DNA of 64,000 nt from assembly GCA_046563655.1 (NCBI GenBank), contig CM102288.1:558001-622000 (forward strand). The letters run 5' to 3'. The position numbers and the translations under genes were made by a program. Below, one piece after another: positions 1,693 to 59,972 of this stretch. This stretch comes from Yuukianura sp. NJ FZ-2021. Its lineage: Eukaryota. Under the pieces are notes generated by a model. That model ran no database searches and was not told where the DNA came from. It worked only from the letters and a program-made list of their open reading frames with translations. Numbering within the stretch: the stretch's first letter is position 1; every line of letters begins with the position of its first letter.

Positions 1693-4600
1693 TTATTTTT
1701 TCTTGGATTGACCTTGACCTTGCCCCATGGGGGTGGTCATGCTCTTGACAAAGTCTTTTCTCTGTTGTTCCAAAAGAAGTTCCAAATGATTAATTCTAAT
1801 TTGACTCTTTTCTAATTGCTTTCCCAGTTCAATCAAAGTTTCTTCTTTTCTTGCTAGTGTCTGTTTGACCCGTTGACCAATTCGTTCCATCTCGGCTTCT
1901 TTGTCTGTTCTAAATTTTTCAAAATTCCTTTGACTCTGTTCTAATTCTAACTTGTTCTTGGCTTTCAATTCAACCACGGCGGCTTTCACTCCTGCGCAGT
2001 CTTCTTCTAAAGCTTCAATTTGAGCCGTGAATTCCCGCCGAATTATGGAAGTCAAGTTAACCCGTTCTTCGAGCATGCGCAGATTGGCTTCGGTCAGATC
2101 TTGATTTTCTTTTGTTCTAAGTCCAAGTGTAGTTTTGATACTAAACAACTCTTCATCTTTAGCAAGCACCTCGGTTTTTAAAGTTGAAAACTTGACCTTG
2201 AGGTCACGCTCTGATTTCTCAAATTCGTCCAGTTCTGCTTGGAACTTTTCCTGTAGTCGTCTAAAAAAAAACAAGAAGAGATTCCATGATTTTTGAAAAT
2301 TTTGAAGTTTTTACAATAACGAATACAGAAAAAGATTTTTTCCTTACTTCAACCGAGATTCTTGAGCGAGCAATTCTTCTTGCCGAATTCGCTCAAATTC
2401 TTCGCGTAACTTTTTTTCACGTTCGCGAATTTCCTTTTCTTTTTCTTTGTTCAGAATTTCAATCAATTGTGATTCACGTTCTGCCAAAATTTGTTCATTT
2501 TTCTTATTGAACGTTGTAATCCAATTTTCACGTTGAGATTCAAAATTGTCTCGTAAACTTTGAATTTCACGTTCGTGACGTTTTTCTAATTGGCCGATTT
2601 TGAGTTCATGTTCTTGACGAATATTTTCAATCTAAGGAGAGAAAAAAAATCTCTTGCTTTTTTGAATTTTTGAAATCTTGAAAATTTTCAAAATTTTACC
2701 TCAACTTCACATTTGATTTGACCTTTCCTGACGTTTTCTTGAGCAGATTCACGAATTTTCACTTCTTCGGCCGAAATTCGATCTTTTTCGTCTTGCATTT
2801 CTTTTAGCCAGCGTCTTTTTTGTGTCTCCAATTCTTCCACTTGACGCTGAAAATCTGCTTCAAATCGCTTTTCAAGCAATTCGCGTTCTTGACGACACGC
2901 CGATTCTTTTTCGCGACTGAAATTTTCACGCAGTTCTTGTAGTTGGTGCGTTTGTTTTCGCGCGTAGCGTTCTTCTAGTTCGTGAATTTCGTCGGCATAG
3001 TAGGCTCGTGTTTCTGACATTTCTTGTTGGTGTCGCTGAATGAGACGCTGAACTTCCGGTTCTAGGCCTTTGACCGTCATGTCCTGCAAAATCATACAAC
3101 AAAAAAATGTCAACAGTCAAAAACGTCAACAACAAAAAGCTCAACTACAAAATGGTCAATTACACAACTGAAAAGTTACCCGAATTTCCTGGGTCTTCTG
3201 TCCCACCCATTTTTGTTTCTTGTTTTTGTCCGAATTTTCTTGAAGTTTTCTCAATCTCTTGATTTCTTCTAAATGTTTTTCTTGTAAAGACTTAATTTGT
3301 TGTTGAAATTTTTCTTCAGTTTCTTTCGACTCTTTCAAAATTTTCTCACACTTTTCTTGTAAACTTCGTTTTTCAGTTATCAGTTGATCAACAAATGCTT
3401 GGTGTCTGGTCACAGTCAGCTCAAATTCTTCTTGTTGCAGCTTCAGCCGTTTCTTGGCATCTTTTTCCGAATTTCTGAAACAAAATCAAAATTTCAGAGA
3501 AAGTTTAAAAAAAATGAAATTTTTTTGTGAGTTACTTCATATTGCGAATGTTCAGTTCTCGTTGACTGATCAGCGTCTCTTCAAGGATATGTACATTATG
3601 AGCAGAATCTTCAACTTGTCTCTCCAACATCATAATTTCCCGCGCCAATTCCGCCGAGCCTTTTCGAATCAAAGTGTCCAGTCTGAGGTAATCCATTTTC
3701 CAAAATGAAAGTTTCGAAAAAAAAATTTGAAAAAGAGCAAAAGTCCAGTGAGTGACCTCATTTTCCTATAAGTTGTAACAGTAATCGATAAATCAATGCT
3801 TCACTCACTTGCTAGCGGTGGTCACGTCAGGAGTAACGGAAAGCGATAATTTAGTGGCCGAGGAAGGAAGTAACCGCCGCGGTGCGTGACCTTGACCTTG
3901 ACCTGGCAACACAGTGGAGGTGATGGGGTCAATGTCCTTTTGCTTAAATTTTAGTTGAAACAGTTTGTCACGATCAGACTGCTCCACTTCGTCCAAAAAT
4001 GAGAGAAGCGTCCTACAAAAAAAGTCAAAAATCAAAAGTAATTTCAAAATTTGAAACTCCAAAGATCAGAATTTTTAACTTTTTTTTAATTACTGAGATT
4101 TTGTGTCAAAATTCTCCCAAGGTTCCGAAATATGTGAAGATCTGCTGCTGCCTGGATCCCTGATCCAATCCCCAGCTCCACCATTAGGTAAAAATTGACC
4201 TTGACCTTTGACCTCTTCAAAAAGATTGTGGCTTTTGACCTCTTCGAAAATATCTTGACCTTTGACTTCCCCAAAAAGCGAATCCAAAAAATCAAAATTT
4301 TCTGGAAGTGGTGATTCGTTTCTTTGTCCAGGCGCTGGTGAAGGTGACGAGCGTACCGTAGAACAGGAAATTTCGGAAGTAGCAGGCTCAAAAGCGGGTA
4401 AATCCGAAACAATTTCGGAAATTTTCGGAACTTCGGAAATTTGTTCAGAATTTTTCCGATTGGCAGTAGCTGGCATAAGAGTGGATAAATTAACGCTTCC
4501 GGAAGGAGATGGTGACGGTACTCCAGCGGTATTTTCTTCTAAAAACGTTTCAATTTCGGTTCCTTTTGCCTCTTCTTCTTCGATCATCCGAAGAATCCCG

Positions 4601-5637
4601 AACACTTTCCGGAAGTCGTAGTCAGGCGAAGGACTCTGCGGTGGGAGCTCAGAAGTTATGCCACCAACAACTAGCTTTTCTGGATTTTGAAGTTCGGCGG
4701 TTTCCGGATTTCGAAGTTCGGTAGTTTCCGGATTTCGTTGTTCGTGGTTCAGTGTTGTCGGCGGAACATTGTATCCGGTATCGGGTCGAGCCGATACCAT
4801 TGGAGTGCTTGCTAGAGAGCTGATGAGTGAGAGCGTCGGTAAGGAAGTCAGTTCTGGACCGGTCATGTCGAAAACTTTGTGCTTCTGCGCCGGCACGTAC
4901 CCAGTTTCATCGTTACGCATAAGATTCAAGTCATCTGTTTCTGCACAATTGTGATTAGTAGTCAATCCTTGACAAAGAGAAAGAACTTCGCGGCAAAGTT
5001 CGTCCGATTGACTCAGCAGCAACTTATCGTCAGCTGTAAATTCCGCTGGGACGGGAGAGCGCGAATTTGAAAATGGCGGCGGCGACATTGAAAACTCCTC
5101 TTCATCGTCTATCGTGTTACTATGAACCGAAATAGACATGGATCCGCTTGCCGGTCGCTGGCTTCTGTTCTTCACCGGGGTGGACTGACAAGAAGAGTTC
5201 TGCGCCGAATCGATACCGGAACCGGATACCGGTTTGGTGGTTCGAAGGAACGTAGATGACGCTGACCGTGGTTTAGGATTCGGCGGATGAATGACCTTCG
5301 CTCTAGCTCTCACGCCGGTCAAAAGTGCTGGAGCCGAAAGTTTTCTGGATCCACTTGGCAGTACATCCTGCTCCTTCAAAACATTAATATCTTAATTATC
5401 CATATGATATAATATTAATAATATATATAATATGTATAATATATTATAATATAATATTATGATCCTAGCAATATGTCTTACTGGAGATGACCTAGGTGAA
5501 GCGGAGAGGTCAAGGTCACCTACTGACGACATTTGAGACTCTGGACGAGAGGTGACCTTGGCCGAACTTCCAGGTTCAATTTGTTTCTTTCTGGGTCCGG
5601 TAGGCGGTTTTCCGTAAACTTTACCGTATATTTTCAT
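1693..5637 (-). CDS. CEP131: Centrosomal protein 131 (AZI1/dilatory)-like coiled-coil protein, multi-exon
   Basis: Motifs HQAFVDQLITEKRSLQEKCE, TVKGLEPEVQRLIQRH and RVKQTLARKEETL resemble the CEP131 C-terminal coiled coil; disordered N-terminus; GT-AG introns. Confidence 0.75.
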
Positions 5638-5926: not shown

Positions 5927-8900
5927 TTAGCTCTGAATACAGCTGAGACGGGTTGTTTTGCGTTCTGGACGGCAGATTTGCTTATTCTCGAGAATGCTGT
6001 TAGTGTTACGAATGTCGCTGGTTTTCTCTTGAATGTCGCTGGCTTCGTTACGAATGTCGCTGGTTTTGATTTGAATGTTGTTAGTTTTGTTGCGAATGTC
6101 GCTGGCTTTGTTTCTTGGTGTTGCCATTGGTCGTGGAGGTGGTGGGACTTTAAATTGAAATCCAACCAAAATGTTTCTTATGGTTTCCGCTCGTTGTCGA
6201 TTGATTGAACCTTGAAGATCATCCAGTGTTGTGATCTCATCAGTGGACACAATGATTGTAAAAGATTCAGCATCTTTCTTAGAAGATCTTCCAGAAGGAA
6301 TCACTGAAGTGTTAAACTGGCCAGAAAGTACTGCTGACAGATCAAACGTCGAAGTTCCTGCATTGGGAAGTATTTCATTTCCGGTTGAGTTTCGTTCCAA
6401 AAACGTTGGTTCCAGAAATGAATTTGGCAGATTGCATAGGAACTGTGGAAAGTTGCAATCGAAGAGTGGATGGTCCGAAGCTGTTAGTTCAGTTCGGTAC
6501 TTGCTAATTGTTGTTGTTGGTTCTGCTTCGCAAGTAATGGACGGAGGTGGAGCTATTTCTGGCTTGTTTGAAGAAGCAGTTGATGCTGGAGCGTTCGTTC
6601 GAAGTTTTGGCAGCACTGTAGCAACTACAGGTTTCGTTGTGGACTGTACTTGTGCAACTGCAGCCACAAATTGTTGTGGTACACCCAATTCAAATGTGCT
6701 AATTTCCGTCTCGTCTGTAGTAAACTTCAAACTGGAAAGCGGAAGTTCAAGTGTGTCCATCTCAGAGCCGAAGCGTAACAACTTCCAAGACCTTGAAAAT
6801 ACAGAATCAAATATCAGAATTAAAATACATACAAAGTATTCAAAGTTTTTCCAAAATTTTCGGTTGAAGTAAGGTTTAGACTGAGAGATTGTATCCCTAG
6901 TAGCATTGGCGCCGTACCCCGCCAAGTTCGAAAACACTAGAACTTAATTTTTTTTTAGAATTAGAATTTGAGACTTGTATTTTACCCGTGCTGAAGTGGG
7001 ATTTGAATATAACGATTCTGTCCTTGCAAAACAACGTCAACCTCAAGGTGTCTCCGGATTCTTTTCAAGTGAATTGGCTCCACAGCGACAGACTGCTCAA
7101 CAGGAACGACGGAACTGACAGTGCTAGATGGCTGACATTCGGCCATCAATGCTGGATGCAGACATTCTCTGTAAAGATTAAAGCACATTAAGACTTAACT
7201 AATTAACTAACCTAACTAATTTACATATACTTTGTAAAAAATCCTGTTTGATTAATAGAATTACAAACTTACGGATTGTTAATCTTGATATTGAAAAGCT
7301 CATTTTCGTCAACCTTGTCCAGAGTCAGTCTCATGCTTTTGGCAATTTCTAAAATATGGTCGGGTATACTCGATTTTCGGTGATTATTGGAGTCAACAGT
7401 ATAAGTATACGGTTCGTCAACTGCCTCAGTCAACAATTCTTCAACTGTCTTCTCTTCATTAAAGTGTCGCAGTTTTGGTGGTCGCCCAGGCCCGCGACGT
7501 CTACTCTTCCCAGCCACTTCCGAGTTGTAGTCGTAAATACTTGGAACTTCCAACTTCCTGATGAGAGAATTGTAAACTTCTGGGTCGAATTTTTTTGAAT
7601 AACGACGTTGCCTAGCCGTATTGCAACCTACTTTCTGTTTCTCCAGTACGGGCATCTCGTTTTTCTCTAAGCTTGGATTGTAATTTGGAAGTACTTGAAT
7701 TAATTGCTCCACCATCGTCATTTCTGTTTCACTTTCATGATTGCCTTGGATATTGTCATCGCTGTAAATTAAATCAATCTCAACGGGCTTCTTCGTTTCC
7801 CGAAGTCTGAAACTTCTTCGGCGTTTGTCGGCATTCCGACATTGCGGCAGTCCTTGTACTGTGGTATCGGTATCGGTGTCGGTATCACGCAATATCGGTA
7901 TTTCCAGTTTAGAGGCTAATGGTCTATTCTGCCATCGGGGTCTGAGACGACGTCGCTCGTTATCCCGCCCTTGGGATCTCGTGGTTCGTCTCAAACCATT
8001 GAGGAATCTGGCTCTGGAGTTACGAACTTGCCCAATCGTCTTCGGTGTCGTTTTTGAAACGACAGGAGTCAGAGTTTCGCTGATTGATTTAGTCGCAGTA
8101 ACTGGTGTATCTAACATTGGAGGCAGTGGAGATACCGTGATCGATGAAGTTTCTTTGCTTCTACCCGTATGATAGTCGGTGAGTTTCGTCTGTTTTAGTT
8201 TCGAAGTTGTGTTAGGTACTGATTTGACGCAGGTACGTTCTGACATTCCAAGTTCTGACGGCCTTGGCATGAAAATTACTCTAACTCGCTGGTGATCTGT
8301 TTTCTTAGGAGTTTCAGCACTTCTGGAGATGCTACGGGTATGGGAGCCAGTGTTTGTCGCAACTTCAAGCGAAATCTTATCATCTTCAAAACGTTTCCTC
8401 TTGGAAGCAAGTCGCTTGAGATTGATTTTCAGTTCACGTGGACAAATCTGAGTAATAATTTGAGGTGACATTTTCTTTGGTACAGGAGATAGTGCCTGCG
8501 ATGTTATTTCTGGAACTGGTTCTGCAGTTGCAGTAACAGGAATGGCGGAATTCGATTTCTTAGCAGTTGAGGGTGGTGTGAGGAGTGCCCCGAATCTAGA
8601 AACAAAAATAAACAGTTGTAAATGCTGCAAGGACGTAGTAATATGGACGTTTGGGCTTCTACATTTCCTTGTATTTCTACATTTGTGTTTCTATTTATGA
8701 AAATGTTAGCCGTAGGTCAAAGGTCAATACACTCATACAAACGTTGTTTGTCTCAATGTGATGAACAACTTTACAGGTCACTGGCAGCAAAAGAAACTTG
8801 ACTTTGACCTTTGACCCGGAAGGTATTTACCTCCGTATGACAGGAAGCACTGGTAGATCCACTGATTTCTTGTCCATTTCTTGTTTTCGTTTCGCCATCG

Positions 8901-21009: not shown

Positions 21010-23257
21010 ATGTCTGGTGTGAACGCGGCTTTACTGGGAGTTGAATGTGGTGCAACGAGGTCAACAGCCATTTTGAAATTTTTGAATGACCCCGCACGTC
21101 CAGAACAAATTTTTAACTTTGGACCTTCAAATTTGAGACTTCTTAAAAACGAAGGGCAACTTGAACCGTATTTTAAAAATGTTCGGGAGAAAATTGAACA
21201 GGAAGTGCATGGCGTTCGGATTTTGAGAATCGGAATTGGAATGTCCGGGGTCAGAGAGGATTGTGACCGACAGGTAAAAAATTGAAAACCAAAACTTTAT
21301 TTTTTGAAAATAATTTAAAAATTTTGGATTTCAGGCTGTTCGGGAAGTCGTGGAACGAGTTTTCCCGGATCTGGAAAAAGTTTGGGTGGGAAGCGACCAA
21401 GAAACGGCAATTGCATGTTTAACAGATGACGACGAAGTGCCGAAATTTATTGTGATTTGTGGTACCGGTTCTGGATTGTTCGGAACTAACGGTTCAACGA
21501 CTTTCAAAATTGGAGGCTACGGACATATAGTGGGCAAGAAAAAAATTTCAGAAAAAAATTTTGTCATGATTTTGACAAAAAATTATGATTTTCAACAAAA
21601 ATTTACCCTAAGCCTGGTTCACACAACTCACGCTGTTTCCCAAAAGTGGAAAAAAAAATTTTGCTCACATTTTTTTAAAAGTATTCTTTTCATGTAGGTG
21701 ACCGCGGTGCTGGTTACACTGTTGCACAGAACGGTCTGAAAGCCGCATGCGCAGAATATGATTTAAACAACGAGAAATCTTCTCTTCTGGACTCGTTTAT
21801 GAAGGCAATGGACTGTGAATCCATTGAAGATGTCTGCACGAAGTCGCTAAGTCCAGAATATACAAAATCCAAACTAGCTGCCCTTGCAACGCTAGTTCTT
21901 AGTGCATGGGAGTCGAATGACCCAGCGGCTACAAAAGTAGTCAACAATGCTCTGGATGAACTCGCAGCAGATGCTGCCTGTTTAGCCGTGAAGCTCGCAC
22001 GGTCAAAACCTGGAACTAAGCAAGTCAGTGCCGGACTTACCGGAAGCCTACTCACCAAAAATGAAAAATTCCGTACCGAATTTGTGAATCGCGTGAAACG
22101 GCACGTGAGAAAGTTCGTACCGGGCTTAACTCTAAACGTCACTGTACTTCACCACACGTTTCACGGTGGATTGATGATGGTTTCAGACAAAGAAAACCGC
22201 GACGTGAAAACTTCCACTGAAAAGTCAGCTGATCGTCCAATCACAGAAGAGGAGTTGGAACAGCTGATTCTGCCCATTCGAACGGCCTTGTCTCCCACTG
22301 AAACTCGGAATCCAAAATCCAAAAACTTAGATAAAATGTCAATTTCAGAAGCAATGGACTTGTGGTTAGAAGAGGAGAAGTCAATTTACGAAAAAATTGC
22401 GCAACAAAAACCAATTTTGGAAAAAATCATTGCTCGTGTTGCGGAAACTTTTCGAAATGGTGGGAGGTTATTTTATGCAGGAGCAGGAACGAGTGGAAGA
22501 TTAGGAATTCTGGATGCTTCTGAGTGTCCGCCTACTTTCCAATCGCCTCCAGAATGGGTCCAAGGTTAGTTTCAAAATTTCAACAAAAAACTCAAAAAAA
22601 AAATTTTTTTTCCCAAAATTTTAGGAATAATTGCGGGAGGAGAAGAAGCAATTGTCAATTCGAAAGAGTCAGCAGAAGATTCAGTTTTTGGCGGATCAGA
22701 AGCCGTGGAGTCGCGTGGACTCAATTCAAAAGACATTCTAATTGGTTCGAACTTTTCAAAATGTCTAAGAAATGAACTTTTCAAAAACTTTAAAAAAAAA
22801 TTTTTTTTTAGGAATTGCTTCTTCCGGCACAACTCCGTTTGTCTGGGGAGCAATGTATAGAGCCAAGCAGCTAGGAGCTTTTACGTGTTTCTTGACCTTT
22901 AACCCGCACCTTGACCTCAAATTTCAACCAGATGAAACGATTGTGGTTAATGTTGGACCAGAAATACTGACTGGAAGTACGAGACTCAAATGCGGAAGTG
23001 GAACTAAAACCATTTTGAACATGATTACAACTTTGGCGATGGTTCAGTTTGGAAAGTGTTTGGAGAATTTGATGGTTGACCTTGACCCGGCATGTCAAAA
23101 ACTTAGAGAACGAGCTCTCAGAATAGTTTTGACGATTGTCAATAATGCAAGTGATGGTGACGGAACTGCACGACACATTCCGGAAGATGTTGCTCAAGAA
23201 ATTCTTGTGAGGAACAACTACGACATTAAGAAAACAGTCCAGGAATTGAAAAACTAA
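21010..23257 (+). CDS. murQ: Fusion of a BadF/NAGK-family sugar kinase with an N-acetylmuramic acid 6-phosphate etherase (MurQ); 5 exons (21010-21273, 21335-21533, 21698-22564, 22625-22744, 22812-23257)
   Basis: Kinase motifs GVECGATRS, ICGTGS, GGYGHIVGDRGAGY; MurQ motifs TETRNP, GAGTSGRLGILDASECPPTF, ESAED, GIASSGTTPFV, GPEILTGSTRLK, NLMVD; spliced frame is continuous. Confidence 0.9.
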
Positions 23258-25783: not shown

Positions 25784-26306
25784 AAACAAACACTGAATCA
25801 CACGATTAAGAAACTAAATCCATTAACACGCCCTTGGAGGTGACTACGTCTTAATTTTAAAAAGTTTTTAAAAAATCATGTGATGCATCACCTCCAGAAT
25901 CCAGAAATTTCAAGTATAAATACTGGCTTAGGGCAACTCGGAAACCATTGCACTCTTGCTCCACTCTTTTACCAAAAACGCTTAAAACTTCCAAATTTTT
26001 TCGAAATTTCAAAAATTTCTACTCGTCAAATTTTGCATTTTGAGCAACCTGTTTGCTCATTTGTGAATTTGTAACACTTTTTTTGGAAGTGGAACCATTT
26101 AATGGGTAGAAACCATTTCCTAATTTCGACAGCCGAATTTAAATTTGTCCTCTTCTATACCAAGTACACGATTCCTCCAGTCACAAACACCATTAGGTGT
26201 AATTTATCCAAACTCAGAAAAAAATAAATTTTCAAAAGAAAAAGCTTTTTTCAAAAAACTAATTTTTTCTAAAAGGAAGTACTTTTTAAAAAAAAACTTG
26301 AGAAAC

Positions 26307-28861
26307 ATGCCTTCAACTTGTTGTGAAACTAAGGCCGTACCTGTCTCCACTCCTTTGATTGAAACTGCTCCTGTTCCATCCAAGGTCAAGGTCACGGCGA
26401 CACTTCATCCACTGGACTCTTTGACCTTGACTGAAATTGCTGCTTCAGTTCGCATCATTCGCGCGAACTATCCCACGAAAAAATGGATTTTCAATGCTGT
26501 TTCGCTCGAAGAACCTGAAAAAACTGCAGTTCTGGAGTACATTAAGGCTGAAGAGAGAGGGGAGACCATGACACTTCCGGTCATACCACGTCGGTCCAGA
26601 GTCATACTCATTGAGCATTACACTGGCAAGGTCACGGAGGTCACGATCAACTTGACCTCGGAGGTCATTGACTCCTACGAAGACATTCCCTTTGGTAACC
26701 AACCCACTTTTACCATGGAAGAGACAGTTATTGCTGAAGACATTGTGAGAAAGGACGTAGGAGTTCAAAATCGGTTGGCCAAGATGGGAATTCAAGATTT
26801 TGACAACGTCGTGTCTGATCCATGGTAAAAAATTTAGATTTCACTTTTCAAAATTTCAAAATTTCAACAAAAAAAAATCAAAATTTTGTTTTTTCTAGGG
26901 TTGTGAGTTACGAAGGAATGGATCCGAAGTTAAGAGGGCGTCGTCTCATGCAGTCCTTCATGTACATACGGTTGTACGAACATGACAATCACTACGCACA
27001 TCCATTAGATTTTGCACCAAGTAAATTTTAAAATTTTGAAATTTGAAAAATGGATTTTTGAAATTGACGCTTTCTGACAGTCGTGGACATGGCTACGGAG
27101 AAAGTTGTGGCGATTGAGGATGTTCCTGTTCATCTGGACATGAAGACCCCCGGGAGGTCAAAGGTCACGTACCCCAAGAAATGCAGTAACTTTGTCCATG
27201 AGTTACATCCAGAAGGATTCCTAAGAAACGACATCAAGCCTCTTCAGGTTGTGCAACCGCAAGGACCAAGTTTTAGCCTCAAGGGGAACGAAGTCAGTTG
27301 GCAAAAATTCAAAATCCGAATCGGGTAACAACGCAAACATAACAAAAAAACTAATCTGGGTCAATTCTTAACTGACATTTGACCTTGACATTCAGATTCA
27401 ACTACCGCGAAGGACTCGTGTTGCACAACGTGTCGTACCAAGATGGCGACCGACGCCGTCCTTTGATATACCGCGCCTCACTGTCCGAAATGATCGTGCC
27501 GTACGGCGACCCCCGACCTGTGTACCATCGCAAATGTGTTAGTTTCAGACTTAACTAATTCGTTAATTAAGATTGTTAATTAGTTAATTATAATTTAGGC
27601 TTTTGATGTGGGTGAATATGGACTTGGATACTGCACAAACTCTCTGCAACTTGGTTGTGACTGCTTGGGTACAATCAAGTACTTGGATGCGCACGTCGTC
27701 AATCACAAGGGCGAACCAACCACAATCAAAAATGCAATTTGCATTCATGAAGAAGACGATGGAATTCTGTACAAGCACTACGAGTACAGAAACAATCATG
27801 TCACTTTGGCACGATCGCGCAAACTCATCATCTCTTTTATCGTCACGGTCGCCAACTACGAATATGCTTTCTACTGGACTTTTCGACAAGATGCTTCCAT
27901 CCACTTTGAGGTCAAAGTAAGTTGTGACCTTTGACCTTTTCAAAAATTTCAATTATTTTCAAAAACTTTACCCTAGGCTACTGGAATCATCAGCACGATT
28001 CTTCGACTGGACGGTGAAAAGGCGTCTTTTGCTTCTCCTGTCATGGACAACGTGAGTGGCCAGTTTCACCAACATGTCTACTGCATGCGACTGGACACAA
28101 TGTTCGATGGTGTCAAAAACACAGTCTACACTGTAGACACGACTCCACTCAAAGGCAACGTAGGCTCAGAGGACAATCCGTGGGGACAAGGATTCGGTTC
28201 GGCCATGACGCCGCTCAAACACGGTTTTTCGGACAATTCGACGGAAAAGTCTCGGTTCTGGGTCATTGGGAACGACGACAACCGACATCCGACAACTGGT
28301 GGACCGACATCGTGGAAACTGTACCCGGGAAATCCGGTTCGGCTCATGGCCAAACCAGGAAGTCACATCTACGAACAAGCTGGATTTGCAAGACATGCTG
28401 TTTGGGTAACACCTTACGACGCAGAGCAAGTGTATCCAGGTACACTTTTACAAAAACTTTTCAAAATTTACCAAAAAAGAAACTGCTTTCAAAATTGTGT
28501 TTTGAATTTGTTAGCTGGGAAGTACATCAATACGATCAATGGTTTCAACGGTTTGGCTGAATGGGCACAAGAGGAGAAAAATACTGAAAATGAGGACATT
28601 GTGCTATGGCATGTCTTTGGAACTACGCATGTCGTTCGAACAGAAGATTTTCCAATTATGCCAGTGGAGTAAGATTTTTTCAAACAAAAATCATGGAGTT
28701 TTGAAAAGTTTTTTAAAGTTTTCTTTTCCATTTTAAGATCTTGTGGGTTCGCTCTGAAGCCTTTCAACTTCTTCCTTTGCAATCCGGCTCTGGATGTTCC
28801 ACCTCCGGATCGAAACGAAAACAAAAGCGCTCAAGTTCTTTCCATTGGAAATGGAAAATGA
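26307..28861 (+). CDS. Copper-containing amine oxidase (TPQ-dependent), multi-exon, no signal peptide
   Basis: HPLDSLT, AFDVGEYGLG (catalytic Asp), VANYEY (TPQ motif), HQH and HVVRTEDFPIMP copper ligands, FFLCNPALDVP. Confidence 0.93.
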
Positions 28862-32525: not shown

Positions 32526-35295
32526 TTAGTATCGAGCAGAAGATAAGCAAGATGGTGGTGTATAGCAAGAAGGAGGCGACGGCAGCATAAGCGGTGGTTT
32601 GCTGATGCCGTAGAATCCTGGTGGCGGCAGAGATACTGGCGTAGGTGGCGCTGAATTTGAAAGAAGCGCTGAAATTCGTCCAATTCCTTTCACAGCTCCA
32701 TACCCAACGAGAACCAAAAGTCCAGTTCCAAAGAGAAGGAATTCCAACCCACAGTCGCTTACGCTTCTCTGTCCAGATAAAACCTAAAAAACAATTTTGA
32801 AAAAAATATTTAAAAAAAAACTTCTTAAAAATAAGCTCCAAAATTTGAAAATTTTAGTTTTAGAACAAACCTCTCTTAAAGTTCCAAACTGCTCGGCAAA
32901 AAATGTTGCGTCTTGTGCAGAAGCCTCAGAAACTGTCAAAATTTCTGGAGAATTTCCAGGTTGTTGCTGCGAATCGCTGTTGTCCGCCGTATTTCCAGCA
33001 GCATCAGGTGAATTCAAAGTTTCTGCACCACCGTCAGCGCCTTGAGTGGCTGCAAGGCCGGCTTGATCTGCACCTTCAGGTGAAGTTCCTTCGGCTGCAC
33101 CTTCCAACGTAGTTGCTTCGGCTCCACCGTCTGACGAACTTGGTTCGACGGAATCTTGTGCTGCACCTTCCGTCGGTACAGTTTCGGTTTGTTCTCCACC
33201 TTCGGTCTCCCCAGCAGCAACTGTCTCATTGCCACTCGAACTTTCAATTTCCGACGTTTCTGACGATTCGGCACCCTCCGCCCCTTCACGAGTCTTTTCA
33301 AGCATTCCTTCATCCCCTTCTGCACATTTAGCTTCGCCAGAGTCTTCTCCTGTTGTATCTGCACATTCTCCTGTGGCCTCTCCTGTTGCTGCGACTTCTG
33401 TGGTAGCCTCTCCTGTTGCTGCGACTTCTGTAGTGACTTCTCCTGTTGCTTCGACTTCTCCAGTGGCTTCTCCTGTTGCTGCGACTTCTCCAGTGGCTTC
33501 TCCTGTTGCTGCCACTTCTCCAGTGGCTTCTCCTGTTGCTGCGACTTCTGCTGTAACTTCTCCTGTTTCTGCCACTTCTCCGCAACCTCCTTGACCTTCC
33601 GTTTCTGCTGTAACGGCAGCGTCAACACAGGGTTCCGTTCCTTCAGCAGTCTTTTCAAGCAATCCTTCCTCACCTTCTGCGCAATTAGCTTCTCCTGTTG
33701 TATCTACACATTCTCCAGTAACCTCTCCTGTTTCTGCGACTTCTGCAGTAACCTCTCCTGTTGCTGCGACTTCTGTAGTGACTTCTCCTGTCGCTTCACC
33801 TTCTGCAGTGACCTCTCCGCAACCTCCTTGACCTTCCGTTTCTGCTGCAACGGCTGCTTCAACACAGGGCTCCGCAGCTTCAGCGACTTTGTCAAGTTGT
33901 TCTTCCTGGCCGCCCGGCTTGTCGTCGCAGAGAGGCCAAACAACTTCCGGATTTTGGCCGTCCTTTGGCTGATCCCGGCGCATTAGTTCTAAAGTAAACA
34001 ATTTAGTATTCAAATTTAACATTGTGACCTAGCATGACCTAAACTTCAAAAAATCAACCTCCAACACAAGTTCCAGTTGGCATTTGATCCAGTGCTGCTT
34101 CATCTGGTGGAGGAGGAAACTCCAAGTCTGCTGCTACAACTTGAGGAGATCCAGTGACAGTGTCGCTTCCGGGAGTCACAGTGGCAAGAGCATGATTTTC
34201 TTGGGTTGGTTGAAGTGGGATTCCACTCATGGGCTGAGGCTGACATCGTTTGACCTCATCTTCTTGACCTTTGACCTTTGCCTGTTGACCTTCCTTGACC
34301 TCTTGTTCTTGTGTCAAAGTGTCTTGGTCAGTCTTGGCACCTTGACAACCAGAAAGTTGGTCTCTTCTTACTCCAAGACGTTCCAGTGCAGCAGCGATCG
34401 CTTGAGCATGTTCCAGTGCAGCACTCATGTTTCGCACTTGCGTAAGGAGTGCTTGAACTTCTTGACAAATCAGTCTGTCCAGACTCTTGGTCGAAAGATT
34501 CAGAAGGTCAGCGTTCGGCTCACTTGATCCCTGCACTCCCTCACCTACATTTTTAAATTTTTCAAAAAATGCAAAAATTTTAAGCTTCTGGAAACTTTTT
34601 GTCATCTTTGAATGTGTTTTTATAAAGTTAGAGTGACCTGTACACTTGACCTCTCCTTGACCTTCTGCCACCATTTCCATGTTTGATAGTAAGTTGGTGA
34701 GAACATTAATTTGTTGATCCAGACGATTCTCATCTGTATCCTGCTGACATCCTTCCGGTAGCAGTTGAAGTTCACCCGCTCGGCGATACTTTTCTGCAAA
34801 TTTAGTCCCAACTTCAACAGAACTCTTTACGAGTTCTTGAAGTCCCGAGAGACGCCTGCGCAGCGATTCGGGGTCATTCGGGTCATCGCTTTTCCCAGTC
34901 CCATCTCCAACTCCTTTGGCCTTCTGTCAAGTACACAAATGGTTGAAGTCAGGTTTAACGACCATCATTATAGCCGCATAGTGTTGCCACTCCGCCATTT
35001 TAAGTGGCTACACCGTGTGGCAACATGTGTTGCCACCCATTGTAACTAATTAATGGATTACCGGTGCCGAAGATCCAGCTCCTCGTCCGAGCTTTTGATC
35101 CAAGTAGTCAGCAACGAAACAGTAAATGTTTTGGGGTTTACGATTCAGCACCTAAAAGTATCATTAAACAAATTTTTGCTGTTTTTTGAAAAAGAAACTG
35201 TGTTTTTTAAACTTTGCCTGTGTGGAAATGTCTTGAAGGAGCTTTTCAAGGCCGGGGGGTAGCGGTGGCACAAAGTCATCGCAAGGATTTCCCAT
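32526..35295 (-). CDS. RIIa docking-domain protein with a long acidic repeat region and a C-terminal hydrophobic anchor
   Basis: Spliced N-terminus LPPGLEKLLQDISTQ|VLNRKPQNIYCFVADYLDQKL; EVAATGEATG repeats; FLLFGTGLLVLVGYGAV near the C-terminus. Confidence 0.65.
33360..33870. repeat. Coding 30-nt tandem repeat nested in a larger duplicated block
   Basis: TCTCCTGTTGCTGCGACTTCTCCAGTGGCT-like units; EPCV..AETEGQGGCGEV occurs twice. Confidence 0.85.
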
Positions 35296-42773: not shown

Positions 42774-44434
42774 TTAGTCTTGCCGTTGGAACGTCATGAG
42801 ATCAAAGGTATTGTCCGGAGTTGTCCAGATACTTGTAAAGCCCAGTTCAGCCGCATGTCCACTGAGGGTGACATGTCGATCCATGATGGATCCCGGTAGT
42901 TTATGGTCGCTAAGAGACAGATTCTTGATGTTTGGTTCTGACAGGGCAGCTCCAATCGTCTCGATAAACTCCACGACCGGAAGAACTGTGCCCATTGGAC
43001 CAGGAACTGGAGTAAAAAACTGGAGATTGATGACCGTCAGGGATTCGGAGTGCAGAAGAAGGTGTTCCAGATCTTCAATGTCGAGATCGACATACTTGAG
43101 CTCCAGTTCAGTCAAAGTGTTGAGTAACCATGACGACAAGTTCCGGTGTCTCAGACCATAGTATCGTGCATCGCCCCATATCTTCAGGTATTTCAGATTG
43201 ACAAGATGTGCAATGTGGTTCCAGTTGAAGGGGTCAACGTTAGTGGAGTCTCCGTTGTAATTAGTAATTGAGTACAGTTCCAGCTTGGTCAAGGTTCCGC
43301 TGAGAGCTTTTAGAATTGGCTTGTAGAAACGCCACATAACAGCGTCGAAGTTGCAGATTAACGTTGACAAATTCGTTTGAGACACGATGAAGCCACGGTA
43401 GATGAAGAGGTGGTGCAGAGTCACTCCTGGACAGTAGATGATCAATGTACTCAGTTTCATCGGATAGTCGCTGCGAATTGACTGTCCAAGTGAGTCGTCT
43501 GTTGGTATTATGTTCTCTTGCTGGTGAATATGATTTCGCCAATTGTCAATTCGAATCCGAAATTCTTGAACGTTTGGATGAAGAAAGGCTTGTTGCAGAA
43601 TTTCAAAAACGGAGTCTGATGTCACGTCAGGCGGAAACTGGCGAAGATCAAACTCAATCGTAAGGAGCTTGAAACTCAAGCTATGATCCAGGTAGGATTT
43701 GAGCTCAGCTTGTGTCAGATGCTCATTGATGACAAGAGTCTTCCCATCTTTTGAAGATGTCTTGACTTTATCTGACTTTCGGTTCACACGAAGATGATCT
43801 CCGCTATCTTTTTTCAGATCACATGAATACCACATTCGGCCAAGAACTTCATTGGTTGGCTCTAGCTCAACGACGTGATGGCGCGGAGAGGCATTGGCGG
43901 ATTGACGAGGCGTCCCAACCTGAAATATCAATAACGACATGAAATCGTTTCATTGTTTAACTTTTAACGATTTTATCATATTAAAACCTTGCTAGCTGGC
44001 AGTGAATACTGTATTCGAAGGTCATCGCCGTGACCGTTTGTGAGAAGTTTGACGTTGACAACTACCGGTTTCTCTTCTTCTTCTTCGTCCTCATCAGGAG
44101 TATGTTCAGTTTCAGTTTCAATGTCGCCCTCTTCATGTCGTGGTCCAGAAATTTGTTTGAAACCGTCATCGTTCTCTTCTGGCTTAACTTTGGATGTCTT
44201 TCTGAAGCAGAAACACAGTCGAACGAGGTAAGTAATAATGGCACACAATCTTCTCAGGAGCCAAAATGTGCTTCGGCACAGAATCATGCTCCTTGAAGAA
44301 TTTGAAGTTCGTCTGGGAGATGGTAACGGTAATTGATCTACGTTTTTCCCTAGTTGCGATTTGCGTTCCATCAAACCAAGGTGAATCGGAGACGATACAG
44401 CATTTGACCTCCTGGAAATAAACAAATTCAACAT
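42774..44434 (-). CDS. Uncharacterised protein with a leucine-rich/RNI-like C-terminal region; 5' end uncertain
   Basis: Two long co-oriented ORFs joined by a short intron; LxxLxL repeats (LTKLEL, LKYLKI, LTELEL). Confidence 0.55.
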
Positions 44435-52617: not shown

Positions 52618-54435
52618 ATGTTGAAAGGCAAAGAAATTGGGTACAAACAGCAAAGTTTTGAGGATTCTTCGTCTGAAGAGGACGAGGTCAAGGTTTCACC
52701 GAAGGCACGGGCATCGGAACAACTCAATTTGACAAGCAAGTCACACTGACATCAGTTTCTTGAAAATGAAATTTTGAAAAATAAGAAATCAAAAATCTTG
52801 ATTTAAAATGTCTTGTTTTTGTTAGATGCAGCCGATTTTGGAAATTCCCCGACTGGACGAGTAAAAGTTCAAGTTCAAAAGATTCCGCGTAGTAGCGTTC
52901 CAGAACATTCGACAGATACGGATAATGGCTGCTGTCCAAAAGCGTGTTACTCAACAAAATGTGCTGTGACTGGAACTGTCATGACGCTGATCGTTACTAT
53001 AATTTTGATCGTGACCCTTGACCTCGCAATTTTCGGAGCGGAACGATACGGTCATCGACGTCCTTATGTCATTGACGAAACGAATACGACGCTTGTCAAG
53101 TTCGAACTGAACGGTACAAGATCCGGATCCAGTAAGGTATTCGTCGCTTTTGAAGCGATTCCATCCAGCGACCGAGAGCAACTTGAGTCTATTGAGCTCA
53201 ACTTTGTTAAAGTCGGCATTCCCGAATTGGCGGAAACGTTGGACTATGCTTGGTATTTCAAAAATTTGAAAAACTTGACCCTGAGCAACGTTTGGCTCCA
53301 AGGGGTCATGCCTTGGGAAAACTACAAACGCTATAACGTTCCGAAGGGACTCGAAAACTTTCATCTTGCAGTCATTCGAGATATTGGACGAGATGAAGGA
53401 TTTACGCTGGATTTGTGTAACACATGCACTGGCAGCGATTTTAACCCGATTTTAGCAAATCGCTTCAACATTTCGTCGATTCTGCAGCGTCATTGTATCG
53501 AATCGCTGCTGTTTCTGAAAAGACCAAGCGATTGGGCTGGAAGTTTGGCAGAATTGAACTATAACTATTTTTTGTCCGTCTGGGGCTGGACACTTCTAAG
53601 TCTCAACAATGTCACAGGCGAAGTGACCTCTACGCTTCCTTACAGTGACGAACTTATTCGGAATGTCACAAGGTCACCCAGATTTGGCCCCTCGGGGGTC
53701 AAGGTCATTCGATTGAGAAATGTCAAGGTCAACGTGTCCACCATCGTGTCACTCCCTCCGACACTTCAAGTCCTCCATTTGGACAATGTTGACCTTGAGG
53801 GGTTTCAAGGTCAAAGAATCTCTTCAATTTTGAAAACTTTTACTTCTCTGGAAGAATTAACTCTCAAATTCAGTCGTTTCCAGGATTCCAGTCCGCCAAA
53901 ATTTGAAATCTGGCTGGATGACCTCCCGGGGTCACTCAAAAGTTTGACCTTGGCAAATGTCATACTCCAAGTTCAGCCAAACAGCTCAGCCAACTTTCAC
54001 TTGACAGATCTTAACATCTTTGGAGCCCATTTGCAAAATGACGACTTTTTGGAAAATTTTTCAAAATATTTCAAAGTAAAGAGGATCGCTTGGCAAGTTG
54101 AAAAATTTAGTGGATCGCCAACAAAAAGGAGTTCGTGGCTCAGCGTTTTGGTGGCTCTGGCCATGGCGGATCCGGATTCGATATATTTAGACAAAAATGG
54201 ATCGGTTCGCTTGTCTCCAACGGCCCCACCACTCAAATTGATCCAACTCATTCCACCGTTGACCTTTGACCTTGGCACAAAAGCCATCACGCTATCAAAG
54301 AGAGTTCCAAATTTGGAGTTTTTGGGCCACGCCCCCACGGGGGTCATTGACTCTTCGCCGACATCTACTTGGTTCAAACTGCTCAAAGTTAATGCATTTT
54401 TAGACGACAAATTTATGTTGGAGTACAATTGGTAA
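52618..54435 (+). CDS. Type II membrane protein with a large leucine-rich, N-glycosylation-site-rich ectodomain
   Basis: Short first exon (GC donor at 52736) joined in frame to a 540-aa ORF; TM VMTLIVTIILIVTL; LxxLxL repeats. Confidence 0.7.
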
Positions 54436-54801: not shown

Positions 54802-57800
54802 ATGTGTCGTGCAGAAACACTTCCAAAGTACTTGGTAATTTTAATCTTACTGGTAATTCATGTCGAATCAGCACTACATCAACCGCAAACGGTAAAACTC
54901 GGTAAGCTAAAAAAATTTCAATTCATCAAAAATGTGAACAATTTAATTTTTAAATGTTCAATTTACATTTAACAAGTAAAGCATTTTAACAAGAAAATCA
55001 ACAGGAAGTGGAATTTTTATGATGTGGAATTTTTGGTCAAATTTTGCACATCTTGCCAAAAAAAAAATTTAGTTAGTCATTTCTGAGAACTGCTTTCTCT
55101 TTTTTTAATTTCTGGCTTTGTATCAAAAATGTGGTTGCAGTAAACTCTAAATATGCTTATTGTAACCACCATTATAATGCATGGAAATTAAAAATAATAA
55201 TTTAATATTAATATTAATTAATTAAATATTAATGTTTATTAATTTATTATATTTTGTTGTTTACATGTTAAAGGTGGAATGTTTGACATTTGGGATCCTT
55301 ATGAAGAAACGGCTTTTCTCCATGCTGCTGACAGGGTCAATTCAGATCAAAATGCTTTTAAGATGTTCAACATTGGAGCGATGCTAGAAAAAGTTCAAAG
55401 GGGAGACTCTTACAATGCATCTAAACAAGGTTCGAACAAGTTTTTAAAACTTTTCAAAATCCAAATTTTGAAAAATTTTGGATTTTGGTTTTTCAGTCTG
55501 TAAGTTACTTCAAGAAGGCATTGCTGGCATAATCGGTCCACAAACTCCTGTGACTGCAAGTCACGTTCAATCCGTGTCTGAAGTTTTTCATATTCCGCGT
55601 ATTGAAACGAACTGGGACTTTAGGGGCAACCGAAGCCGAGGGCAGTTCCTCATCAACTTGTATCCACATCCGGCAACACTCAGCAAGGTTTCAAAATTTT
55701 GAAAAGTTTACAAAAATTCAAAAATTTTGAAACTTTATTCCTCATTTCATTTATTTTAGGCGTATGCTGATGTTATTCGAGACTTCGGTTGGTCTGAAGT
55801 GATTATAATTTATGAAAACAACGAGAGCTTGATTCGACTTCAAGGAATTTTCGAATTAACGGGAGATGTTATCAAGCAGTACGTTGTCAAATTGCTTCCA
55901 AACAACGAAGAAGGTGACGATTTCAGGTAAAATTTTGAATTTCGAAATTTTGAAAACCAACTTTTTCAAAAATTATCAACCAAAATTTACAAAAATAGAC
56001 CGTTGATGAAAGATTTAAAGACAAACTTCCACTCAGTCAATCACATCATTCTGGACTGTCACACGTCCAAGCTGCGTCGGATTTTTGAAGATGCCAAAAC
56101 CGAGAACATGTTGACGCATGCCCATGAGTACTTTTTGACCTCACTGGACATCCATATTCTGGATCCAAGTGACGAGGCATTTCAAAATGTGAATATCACG
56201 GCCTTCCGACTAGTCGATCCAGCAAATCCGAAGTTACAGGGCATTCGGGAGTCGTGGAATGTCAACTCGGCTTTAGTCGGAAAACGAGCAGATTTCTCCG
56301 GACAAGATCCGTTCCGCGTACCACGGCACAAATATGACTCCAACTCGTTTCCGAATTTAACACTAGACATGTTCATGGTAAAGTTCAAAAACTACTTTTC
56401 AAAAACTAGTTTTCAAAAAAGTCGTGTTGTTTTAAACTTTGAAGGTCGATACGGCCCTGATTTATGACGCGGTGGAACTGTTCGCTTCGGGACTCGATAA
56501 ATTTTCCAAGGAATTGAGGCAAGAGTTGCAAACTGAAGTGCTCGACTGTGACTTTTTTCCAATTCGTTACTGGAGTCAAGGACATGAATTTATGAAAGCA
56601 CTGAAAGATGTAAATTTCGATTAATTTCAATCGATTACAATCCGTTTTAGCCAATTTACCTCCGCGTGACCTCTGATTACTTCAATTATTGACCTTTCAT
56701 GACCTTTGACCTTACTATTTAATAGGTGACATTCCAAGGGGTCAGCGGCGACATTCGAATTGACGACGACGGGAAACGCAGAAAATTCAAAATGGAAGTC
56801 GTGGAGTTGACAAATAACGTATAGTTTTTAATTTTTTTTTTCAAAATTTTTCAAATTGGTTCAAAATTTTGAAAATTTGGAAGAAAAAGTTTTTTTTTAG
56901 AATATCACTGTGGTTGGGGTATGGAGTTCGTTGGGACAACGACAGAACTTGAATTGGACCAGAGATGAAAGCGAAACGCTGAAATTCCAAATTCAAGTAC
57001 TGAAAGGACAAACTTTTATTGTAACAACGAAAGAGGTTTTGAACAAAAAACGAAGCAACTCATTAAAATTATGTAACTTACTTTCTGATATTTCCATTTT
57101 TTTTTCAGAGTCTGCCTTATATAACGTTTTTTGAAAATGGGACGACTCCCGAAGGCTACAGCGTGGACTTGATCCAGAAACTTGCAGAACAACTTGAATT
57201 TAACTACGTTTTTAAAAAAGTTGATGACGGGAAAATGGGATCACCCGATCCGAGTTCCAAACACGGATGGAATGGACTCATTGGCGAAATTCTGGAAGAT
57301 GTAATGCTCACTTTTCGAGAAAAAAAAAAGAGAGAAAAGAAGAAGCTAAATTCAAAAATTTAAGCACAATGAAATTCTGTTGACGATGTATTTTCAGAAA
57401 GCTCAATTGGCCATAGGTGACATGAGCATCACTTCTGCTCGAGCTAGTGCGGTAACAGAATTTCGAAAATTTTGAAATGAAGAAGTAAAGAATTTTGAAA
57501 TTAACTTTTGTTGTTACTTATAGATTGACTTTTCGTTGCCGTTTATGAACATTGGAATCAGCATTTTGTACATGAAACCAGAGAAACGTGCTCCAAATCT
57601 ATTTTCGTTCTTGGATCCATTTCACTACGAAGTTTGGATCTACATGGCCACAGCCTACCTTGGCGTCTCCCTCACTCTGTTCATTTTGGCACGGTAAAAG
57701 AAACCCAAATTTTGAACAAAATTTTTAAATTTTCGAAATGTTCAAAAAAAAACTTTCGTAGAATTGCGCCCTCCGAGTGGCAAGTGACCTCCAGCGGAAG

Positions 57801-59972
57801 TAGCGACGAAGAAGTGCTAGAGAATCCCTTTAGTTTGATAAATATCCATTGGTTGGTCATGGGGTCACTCATGACAGCAGGATGCGACATATTGCCCAAG
57901 TAGGTCACCCCCCCCCCCACTGTTGACCCCCCCCTCCTACTGGTGACCCCCCTCCTACTGGTGACCCCCCTCCTCCTACTGGTGACCCCCCCTCCTCCTA
58001 CTGGTGACCCCCCCCCTCCTCCTACTGGTGACCCCCCCCCTCCTCCTACTGGTTACCCCCCCCCCCCTGCTGACCTTTATTTGCATTTTGGTGCGAATTC
58101 TAAACTGAGTTTTCGCGGTGTTTCACTCTTGCACGTAACCTACCCCGACCCGGCACCCGGCACGGGAATTACGGAATTTTCTCGAATTTGTCCCCTTCTC
58201 GATTACAATCAATCAGAACACTAAGGCTAAGGGATTGACCAAAAAATAAGCGCCTGTATCCCAATTTTGTGAAATTTTACGGTAACTTTCTGTGTTTGGC
58301 AGAATTACACCCTATGAATGGTTGAATCCGCATCCTTGCATTGAATCTCCCGATGAATTGGAGCTTACGCTGCATCTCGTCAACAGTTTATGGTTCACAA
58401 CTGGAACGCTTATGCAACAAGGAAGTGATATCGCCCCTAAGTAAGCCCTTAACTGTCTGCCCAGTAGTGAACTTAACTCAATGACCTTTGACCCCGCATG
58501 ACCCCACTTACCTCAAAACCTCCCTTATTTGCTTATTTGACCTTGTTCTGGAATTCCAGGGCCGGGTCAACTCGGTTGGTGGCTGGAAGCTGGTGGTTCT
58601 TCACTCTCATTGTGATTTCATCCTACACTGCCAATTTGGCAGCATTTTTAACGAGTGAAGGCATGGTTGAAGGCATCAGGGACATCAAAGATCTTCCCAA
58701 ACAAACAAAAGTCAAATACGGAACCCTTTTTTCAGGAACAACGCGAGACTTTTTCCGCGTAAGTATTTCGCGACGTGAAAATGTAGCTTGATATGCTAAA
58801 AATATTTAGTTCCCATGCCTGTAATGTTAACAAAATCAATATTTTGGGCTTTTTTATTACTAAATATTTATTGATTTTCCCATGCCCTTAATGCTAATTA
58901 ACTAAATATTTTGAGGTTTTCGATGAAAAATATTTAATATTTAAATATTTCGCGGGTTTTTAGTAAATATTTTTAGCATGTCTATGATAACCTTGAGCTT
59001 GGATGTTTCCAGGATTCGACGTTTCCGTTGTACGCAGAAATTGGAAAGAATATGGAGGGCATGTCTCCCTTGCCGCATGTGGAATCTACAAAGAAAGGTG
59101 TGGAGAAAGTACTTGCGTCCAAAGGAGAATTTGCGTTTTTCATGGAATCTGCTGGAATTGAATATGCAACGGAACGGGAGTGTTCTTTAGTTCAACTTGG
59201 AGTTCCGTTGGATTCAAAGGGATTTGGAATTGGATTTAGAAAAGGTAAAACAAACAAAAAATCAAAATTTTGATTTTTAGAAGTTAAGTTTTTGTTTTCA
59301 GGTTTCAAGTTCAGAAATGCCTTCAACATACAGTTGCTAAACATGTCACAGAATGGAGAATTGGAGACACTTAAAAACAAATGGTGGAGCTCACACGAGA
59401 AAGGAGGTGGAAAATGCAAGGTAAAATTCCATTTTTTGTAAAATTTTTGTACTTTTTCAAATTTTGTGAAAAGAGAGGAAATTGAAATTGTGTGTGAATT
59501 ATTTGAACGTATAGACAGAAAAGTCTTCCGATTCGGGAGCTAAACCTTTGACCTTGGGTCACGTGGGAGGTGTATTCGTTGTTCTGCTTGGTGGGTGTAT
59601 CACGGCGGTGATCGTGGGAATTCTTGAATTCATGTGGAAAGCAAGAAAACTTCGTAAAGAAGTTCAGGTTTGTCAAAAAAAAAAATTTACGCAACAGAAA
59701 AAAACCTATTCACGAAATGAGCAAAGATTATTTTCTTCTTGTTATAACTTCCAAATGTCATTTAACTTTTTTTGTAGAGTTCCTACTGGTCAGAAGTTTG
59801 GAAAGAATTGAAATTTGCACTTCAGTGTCAAAATGAATTTAAACCAATCAAGAAGTCTCTGAGCATGAATCCTACAATGCAAAGTGAAAGTGTGCCTTAC
59901 CTGGCGTTTAACAATGGTGGAGGAAATGGGAACCCATCAGAAAAAAGTGTCACTGGTAACATCGAGTCATGA
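54802..59972 (+). CDS. Kainate-type ionotropic glutamate receptor subunit with two alternative pore-loop exons
   Basis: ATD (GIAGIIGP), [69 protein letters not shown]. Confidence 0.93.
57904..58072. repeat. C-rich minisatellite (CCTCCTACTGGTGACCCCCC-like) in an iGluR intron
   Basis: About 7 imperfect units directly after the exon A donor site. Confidence 0.85.

Follow-up and report, generated by a model that had tools for sequence, protein, structure and literature searches.

No other single determinant of Ca2+ entry through non-NMDA glutamate receptors is as well known as the Q/R site of the pore loop, which vertebrates control by RNA editing. At its narrowest point the pore is lined by the Q/R-site side chains of all four subunits, and in the edited vertebrate form an Arg stands at the first Gln of the filter; the GluA2, GluK1, and GluK2 transcripts are edited in this manner by ADAR2, which acts on a hairpin formed between exon and intron. 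In the nicotinic acetylcholine receptor (nAChR) alpha6 gene, exon 8 covers a pore-lining helix. The accessible part of a metazoan survey of ionotropic glutamate receptors (iGluRs) ascribes control of Ca2+ permeability and of polyamine block to two positions, Q/R (Q586) and +4 (Ramos-Vicente 2018). Here we describe a kainate-type iGluR gene in a 64,000-nucleotide stretch of the genome of Yuukianura sp. NJ FZ-2021 (GenBank assembly GCA_046563655.1, contig CM102288.1, positions 558,001 to 622,000 of the forward strand), a stretch that we call the window and whose first letter is position 1 of all coordinates given below. Two consecutive exons of this gene, termed A and B, each encode a pore loop, and they differ at the Q/R site.

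The reading that we favor, at a probability of roughly three in four, is that A and B are tandem-duplicated alternative pore-loop exons of which one enters each functional mRNA, as we infer for the window species from the sequences of this gene and its relatives. No description of alternative pore-loop exons in arthropod kainate receptors was found in literature titles and abstract openings, a search in which 'Q/R site' cannot be used as a phrase and most subscription journals are out of scope, so that an existing description is possible. In the part of the iGluR survey that is accessible, the string 'splic' is absent (Ramos-Vicente 2018), and the available text of a 2026 paper names invertebrate AMPA receptor splicing as a matter that remains for study (PMC13520880). 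For Drosophila KaiR1D, the accessible portion of a preprint indicates that the protein probably forms Ca2+-permeable channels (10.1101/2025.10.06.680643).

The gene lies on the forward strand at approximately 55249..59909, an extent given by the tblastn high-scoring segment pairs of three proteins (P0005, P0011, and P0012) and refined to exon boundaries for 57524-58758 only. Full-length homologues cover it from the amino-terminal domain through S1, M1, the pore loop, M3, S2, and M4 to the C-terminus. The open reading frame (ORF) at 55931-56467 matches the Pfam family ANF_receptor (E 2.2e-8), homologues of the gene bear PF01094, PF10613, PF00497, and PF00060, and comparison with the Protein Atlas found a likeness to Lig_chan. 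The M1 exon (57524..57693), which encodes the end of S1, pre-M1, and M1, closes with two bases of an Arg codon (..FILA + cg) and is followed by GT. A 68-nt intron (57694..57761) with an A-rich 3' end (..caaaaaaaaactttcgtag), and hence a weak polypyrimidine tract, leads to exon A (57762..57899, 138 nt), which has AG at 57760-57761 and GTAGGT after it. As read from the sequence, a 403-nt intron (57900..58302) separates exon A from exon B (58303..58440, 138 nt), the canonical pore-loop exon, preceded by AG and followed by GTAAGC; after a further intron of 119 nt (58441..58559), likewise read from the sequence, comes the exon encoding M3 and the start of S2 (58560..58758), which contains the gate motif SYTANLAAF and whose end was placed at ..FFR before gtaagt. 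All donor sites are of the ordinary GT[AG] type.

Exons A and B have the same phase, and each encodes the cytoplasmic M1-M2 linker and the re-entrant M2 pore loop in 45 whole codons between a split Arg and a split Lys codon. They are homologous, with 16 of 45 residues identical (36%) in an ungapped alignment (BLASTP E 5e-8), and permissive tblastn searches with both exons across the whole 64-kb window found no third copy, the next best match having an E of 0.17. As 138 is a multiple of three (3 x 46), the frame is kept whether both exons are included or both are left out, and reading of the sequence confirms that all four splice outcomes (A, B, A+B, or neither) are in frame. An earlier note on this stretch, made from the letters alone, had given the coordinates and peptides of the two exons, their 138-nt length, AG/GT ends, and common phase, and had taken each for a complete M1-M2 linker plus M2 pore-loop unit; re-reading bears out both statements. 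It had also identified the first Q of MQQG as the Q/R site, and this agrees with an ungapped alignment of exon A to residues 556-599 of GluK3 and with the position Q586 in the accessible part of the iGluR survey (Ramos-Vicente 2018).

Both exons match the pore-loop segment of pancrustacean kainate-type receptors, and they differ in what they place at the filter. Exon B, with the filter MQQGSD, shares 71-73% of its residues with crustacean and collembolan kainate-type receptors, the closest named proteins being 'kainate 2-like', and among structures in the PDB it is nearest to GluK1 and GluK2 (E 6e-12), with GluA at E 2e-4. Exon A, with the filter MTAGCD, has its best PDB matches in GluK3 and GluK2 (E 2.4e-4), AMPA receptors following at about 0.06. 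In the GluK3 alignment (entry 6jfy), LMTAG of exon A stands opposite LMQQG, which puts the Thr of exon A at the Q/R site and its Ala at +1; the acidic residue at +4 (Asp) is kept. The M3 exon finds GluA2 first in the PDB, with E about 2e-23 to the M3 of GluA2 and GluA4. Exchanging B for A turns Q,Q of the filter into T,A with retention of the +4 Asp, and it also alters the sequence of the pore helix. The M1-M2 linker of exon A is rich in Ser and acidic residues and is without the NPHPC motif that is conserved in the B-type linker; to judge by its composition, this linker could be a kinase target.

Evidence that exon A is maintained comes from a metagenome locus, L001, which was found by a scan with a profile of B-type exons and has the same layout: an M1 exon, exon A (1964-2101, 138 nt), an intron of 142 nt, exon B (2244-2381, 138 nt), and an M3 exon. 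The splice sites and the 138-nt length of exon A are kept in L001, where the exon is 76% identical to its counterpart in the window; for exon B, protein identity is 93%. While the exons of the two loci can be aligned by blastn, the introns cannot: orthologous introns share at most one 9-mer, and the intron before exon A measures 68 nt in the window versus 125 nt in L001 and is itself not alignable. Substitutions between the two loci, counted by the Nei-Gojobori method as proportions of nonsynonymous (pN) and synonymous (pS) differences, gave pN 0.128 and pS 0.703 for exon A (omega about 0.07; 10, 3, and 21 differences at the first, second, and third codon positions), pN 0.053 and pS 0.497 for exon B (omega about 0.07, or 0.068; 5, 2, and 13), and pN 0.072 and pS 0.671 for the M1 exon (omega about 0.045; 6, 4, and 24). 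The filter Thr is encoded by ACA in the window but by ACT in L001, a synonymous change. Among 1.84 billion representatives there were 17 matches, one of them the ORF of L001 and another a third relative, P0137, which reads ..NVHWLAMGSLMGAGSDVLPK and thus has Gly at the Q/R site and again Ala at +1. Across the window, L001, and P0137, the pore helix and filter are near-invariant. Given the low dN/dS, the kept length and splice sites, and the synonymous change at the Thr codon, exon A is a coding exon under purifying selection and not a decaying copy. The intron between A and B in the window is filled in large part by a C-rich 24-nt tandem repeat (57908..58072, forward strand, about 7.8 copies, consensus CCCCTCCTCCTACTGGTGACCCCC; Tandem Repeats Finder), which was not found in the 142-nt intron of L001.

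The exon pair is spread widely in Pancrustacea. As a query, exon A alone found no word-sharing relative, but a profile of A-type exons, that is, of the upstream copies, matched 176 proteins, of which 120 were considered. In a set of 130 database proteins, two pore loops stand in series in 20 (19 identified by regular expression and one from Rhodnius, P0038, that the pattern missed), as they do in 6 of the 20 gene models matched by exon B. Among 80 metagenome loci, 11 (L001 included) carry an A-type exon followed downstream, on the same strand, by one of B type at a distance of 141-769 nt, and in the 10 loci inspected (L001 and nine others) the boundaries are common to both exons: ag before the exon, aa or ag as its last two bases, and gt after it. 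The pore loops closest to exon A, among the matches listed, are A-type exons of hexapod and crustacean kainate-type genes, that of Timema among them, and its closest named relative in the same list is a protein of the springtail Allacma fusca, 59% identical and reading LMAQGCDILP. The earlier note had suggested that MTAG may resemble the pore motif of the Drosophila subunit GluRIIC. What these comparisons show is the anatomy of the two exons, their homology, purifying selection on each of them, and conservation of the pair across a wide range.

The two copies differ in how far the filter varies. Downstream, it is nearly always ..MQQGSDIAP; upstream, the exon usually ends in G[CS]D[IL]LP and is variable at the Q/R site, with R in wasps and bees, A in bugs and Timema (whose A-type exon reads LMAAG), G in cockroach and termite, C in malacostracans and copepod-like loci, T in Homalodisca, locus L055, and the window lineage, and Q in ostracods. 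Two loci whose exons match wasp and bee proteins, L047 (2203-2337 and 3059-3193) and L049 (3369-3503 and 4219-4353), have genomic CGG (Arg) at the upstream Q/R site versus CAG (Gln) at the downstream one. In the window lineage, the upstream filter has neither glutamine (M-T/G-A-G), and the Ser- and acid-rich linker takes the place of NPHPC. We also observed that malacostracan genes apparently have three alternative pore-loop exons, two of upstream type (both FLCQG) and one downstream with MQQG (P0043 and P0006 of Penaeus vannamei; P0044 and P0048 of crayfish). An unnamed protein of 166 aa, P0139, has two units of M1 plus pore loop in series, LLRQGSGLNPK and LMQQGSDLNPK, which may point to a similar R/Q duplication, with M1 included, in another lineage.

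Transcript-like sequences and isoform models of other species bear on which exons are joined in mRNA. Five Logan contigs (P0040, P0041, P0049, P0056, and P0097) join M1, an A-type exon, and M3 with a single loop; these contigs are barely longer than three times their ORF, and it is this length that points to an origin from mRNA. All five of the transcript-like contigs examined among those retrieved are single-loop, with no two-loop form among them. A protein of Lygus, P0099, also has M1-A-M3 with a single loop. RefSeq isoforms with the upstream type only occur in Scylla (X3), Penaeus (X1), Cherax (X4), Homarus (X3), and Procambarus (X4), and isoforms with the downstream type only in Palaemon (X3), Oratosquilla (X2), Hyalella (X1), and Portunus (X1). 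Two records of Penaeus vannamei, P0043 and P0006, are almost the same over 398 aligned positions (9 mismatches, 1 gap) but differ in their pore-loop exons: one has the first upstream type alone, and the other has the second upstream type together with the downstream type, a pattern that suggests three alternatives in malacostracans. Apart from six RefSeq models discussed below, all other two-loop proteins come from genome annotation.

Phylogenetic analysis of the exons, which has 76 rows over 45 columns and is therefore weak, indicates that the exon pair is ancient. On the exon tree, 3 changes account for the labels 'upstream' and 'downstream', whereas shuffled labels took 17.6 on average and none of 500 shuffles reached so low a number. 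A tree that splits all A exons from all B exons exceeds the free quick tree by 11.4 log-likelihood units, and the approximately unbiased test does not reject it (p-AU 0.75). An independent duplication within Hemiptera was tried as well and is rejected, being 82.7 units lower (p-AU 1.5e-5).

Splice signals suggest how the choice might be biased. The polypyrimidine tract is better for exon B (ctttctgtgtttggcag in the window) and poor for exon A in both the window and L001, and each exon keeps its own donor sequence in the two species, GTAGGTCA for A and GTAAGC for B. Because of its stronger acceptor site in both species, exon B is probably the default and exon A a regulated choice that would need trans-acting factors. 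An inverted repeat at 58155-58176 and 58546-58567 (22 nt, 82% complementary) pairs the A-B intron with the M3 acceptor; it would loop out exon B, and its duplex energy is no better than that of shuffles.

Several observations weigh against the alternative use of A and B as we propose it. Neither in the window nor in L001 did we find a known mechanism of exclusivity, whether frame shift with decay, steric hindrance, incompatible spliceosomes, or competing RNA pairing. Since double inclusion and double skipping are both in frame, nonsense-mediated decay would be unable to enforce exclusivity; to judge from known minimal intron sizes, steric exclusion would need a shorter A-B intron than the 403 nt of the window or the 142 nt of L001. 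No intron-intron duplex exceeded mononucleotide shuffles when three intron pairs of the window and L001 were run through RNAduplex, a weak test with two species, and the 22-nt inverted repeat has no counterpart in L001. Six RefSeq 'isoform' models bear both loops (Vespa X12, Bombus X4, Halyomorpha X2, Lycorma X2, Bemisia X1, and Rhodnius X2), and these may be model artefacts or real double inclusion. On the side of history, exon A of the window lineage sits on a long branch, and a lineage-specific duplication, with the A and B exons of the window and L001 as one clade, is not rejected (6.0 log-likelihood units above the free tree, p-AU 0.65), so that the case for orthology of the window exon A is made by where it lies, by the ending GCDILP, and by Allacma fusca as the source of its nearest named relative.

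Part of this evidence would also fit a gene in which A and B are independent cassettes, giving A-only, B-only, A+B, and skipped mRNAs of which only the single-loop forms work. That every one of the four splice outcomes is in frame, that no enforcing structure or steric rule was found, and that the six RefSeq models carry both loops all speak for such loose use. However, the transcript-like contigs are single-loop throughout (5 of 5 examined), the two-loop proteins stem from genome annotation, in which reading through an in-frame pair is the expected error, and a two-loop subunit has no counterpart in the established architecture of iGluRs, so that we consider loose use unlikely. Still less probable, and in our estimate very improbable, is that both exons are always included to yield a subunit with two pore loops in series. 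The frame is open through A and B, and 20 of the 130 database gene models are written this way, but single-loop contigs and many RefSeq isoforms occur in relatives, the Penaeus vannamei gene is modeled with different pore-loop exons in its two records, and in the established architecture the tetrameric pore takes one re-entrant loop from each subunit. The earlier note had named an exon that is never spliced in, joint inclusion of both at all times, and decay of one exon in relatives as outcomes that would count against alternative use; in relatives none of these holds, as the single-loop contigs answer the first two, and exon A is not decayed in L001, which keeps its length and splice sites at a dN/dS of about 0.07.

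The idea that exon A is an unused, decaying pseudo-exon in a gene that makes a Q-type subunit only draws on the far greater divergence of A than of B, on its lack of NPHPC, on its weak polypyrimidine tract, and on the absence of any word-sharing relative in the first search. It is strongly disfavored by the open frame, exact length, and splice sites conserved in L001, by the excess of pS over pN (0.703 versus 0.128), by the near-invariant pore helix and filter in three related sequences, by the synonymous change of the filter Thr codon, and by flanking introns that share no alignable sequence. Recoding of the exon B Q/R site by ADAR, in addition to or instead of exon choice, has in its favor a 17-nt, 76% complementary inverted repeat in L001 that pairs the MQQG codons with the downstream intron. 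That repeat has no counterpart in the window, though, and the 3' part of exon B (from about 58395) folds with its downstream intron at z-scores of only -0.46 (window) and -0.66 (L001). With these and the corresponding values for exon A and its intron (-0.07 and +0.95), we found no editing-type exon-intron hairpin with either exon in the window or L001, and we regard editing at this site as most improbable.

If, as we favor, A and B are alternatives, an mRNA that joins M1 to B and M3 would encode a subunit with the canonical Q-type filter MQQGSD; in the product of an mRNA that joins M1 to A and M3, Thr would occupy the Q/R site and Ala the +1 position (MTAGCD), and the linker would be rich in Ser and acidic residues. 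Given where the Q/R-site side chains stand in the pore, at its narrowest point, exchange of the exon should alter the permeability to divalent ions, polyamine block, conductance, or rectification, in a direction that we leave unpredicted. The exon pair would then be a splice-encoded counterpart of vertebrate Q/R editing. With its altered filter and linker, the A form of the window lineage may act as a modulatory subunit, or as one that passes little Ca2+, under cytoplasmic regulation of its own. A broader proposal, for and against which we see the balance as even, is that an alternative pore-loop exon of ancient origin exists in pancrustacean kainate-type receptors and varies chiefly in its Q/R residue (Q downstream; R, A, G, C, T, or Q upstream). 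By choosing between the exons, each arthropod cell would then set the Ca2+ permeability and rectification of its channels, a convergent equivalent of ADAR editing that is hard-wired in the genome; Hymenoptera, with CAG and CGG, encode the very Q/R pair that editing produces in vertebrates.

Elsewhere in the window, open frames at 26124-28672 (forward strand) have Pfam matches to copper amine oxidase, with E 1e-8 for the N2 domain and E 6e-46 for the enzyme domain, and the frame at 21679-22569 (forward strand) has sub-threshold matches to the BcrAD_BadFG ATPase family and to SIS domains of glucokinase regulatory protein. Six further stop-free frames of 338-542 aa have no Pfam match at E 1e-3: 52807-54435 on the forward strand and 7269-8690, 4090-5391, 32784-34028, 42774-43949, and 5927-6943 on the reverse strand. 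These could be lineage-specific genes or remnants of mobile elements.

Should it hold that a conserved exon pair swaps the Q/R site in arthropods, the same functional need would be met there by a different molecular route than the editing of vertebrates, and the pair would offer, through deletion or forced use of one exon, a genetically simple handle on Ca2+-permeable versus Ca2+-impermeable kainate receptors in arthropod circuits. If the exons are alternatives, many public two-loop models of arthropods, RefSeq 'isoform' entries among them (P0027, P0030, P0031, P0032, P0035, P0038, and 14 others), are probably annotation errors, and half of the pore diversity escapes phylogenies or surveys of pore residues in which a gene is represented by a single isoform. 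Public isoform annotation already shows the exon pair, and the gap is one of description and function, not of data.

Among systems already described, the mutually exclusive flip/flop exons of vertebrate AMPA receptors are, as presented in the accessible text of a recent paper (PMC13520880), likewise tandem-duplicated alternative exons of equal length and phase in an iGluR gene, but the pair in the window encodes the pore loop, and the two arrangements arose in different lineages. Exchange of a cation-channel filter within one gene is described for the alternative selectivity-filter exons of invertebrate NALCN in the available part of the source (PMC3557258), although NALCN is a four-domain channel and not a tetrameric ligand-gated receptor, with no homology between the two cases. 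Tandem alternative exons, used in a mutually exclusive way, also diversify an arthropod ligand-gated subunit in the insect Cys-loop receptors (exons 3a/b and 8a/b/c of nAChR alpha6, as given in the accessible part of PMC6393475), which belong to another receptor superfamily.

At the level of the pore loop, there is a likeness to insect KaiR1D-type receptors. The A-type ending GCDILPK is that of the single loop in KaiR1D-like proteins of Holometabola (for example P0073 of Carabus, named KaiR1D in its source), and beetle and butterfly members of this type have T at the Q/R site (SIMTQGCDILPKG). Unlike the window gene with its two alternative loops, the KaiR1D-type models retrieved have a single loop, and exon A has Ala at +1 where KaiR1D-like proteins have Gln.

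In function, the arrangement resembles vertebrate Q/R editing. The window gene would switch by the choice of an exon rather than by deamination and would exchange a whole unit of 46 residues comprising linker, pore helix, and filter; its variant residue is Thr, with Ala at +1, rather than Arg, and no editing-type hairpin was found. In both systems, however, it is the same pore position that is switched within one gene product, and the expected effect, on Ca2+ permeability, polyamine block, and conductance, is the one ascribed to this position in the available text of the iGluR survey (Ramos-Vicente 2018). At the wasp- and bee-like loci the likeness extends to the residues themselves, where CGG upstream versus CAG downstream places in the genome the same Q/R pair that editing creates.

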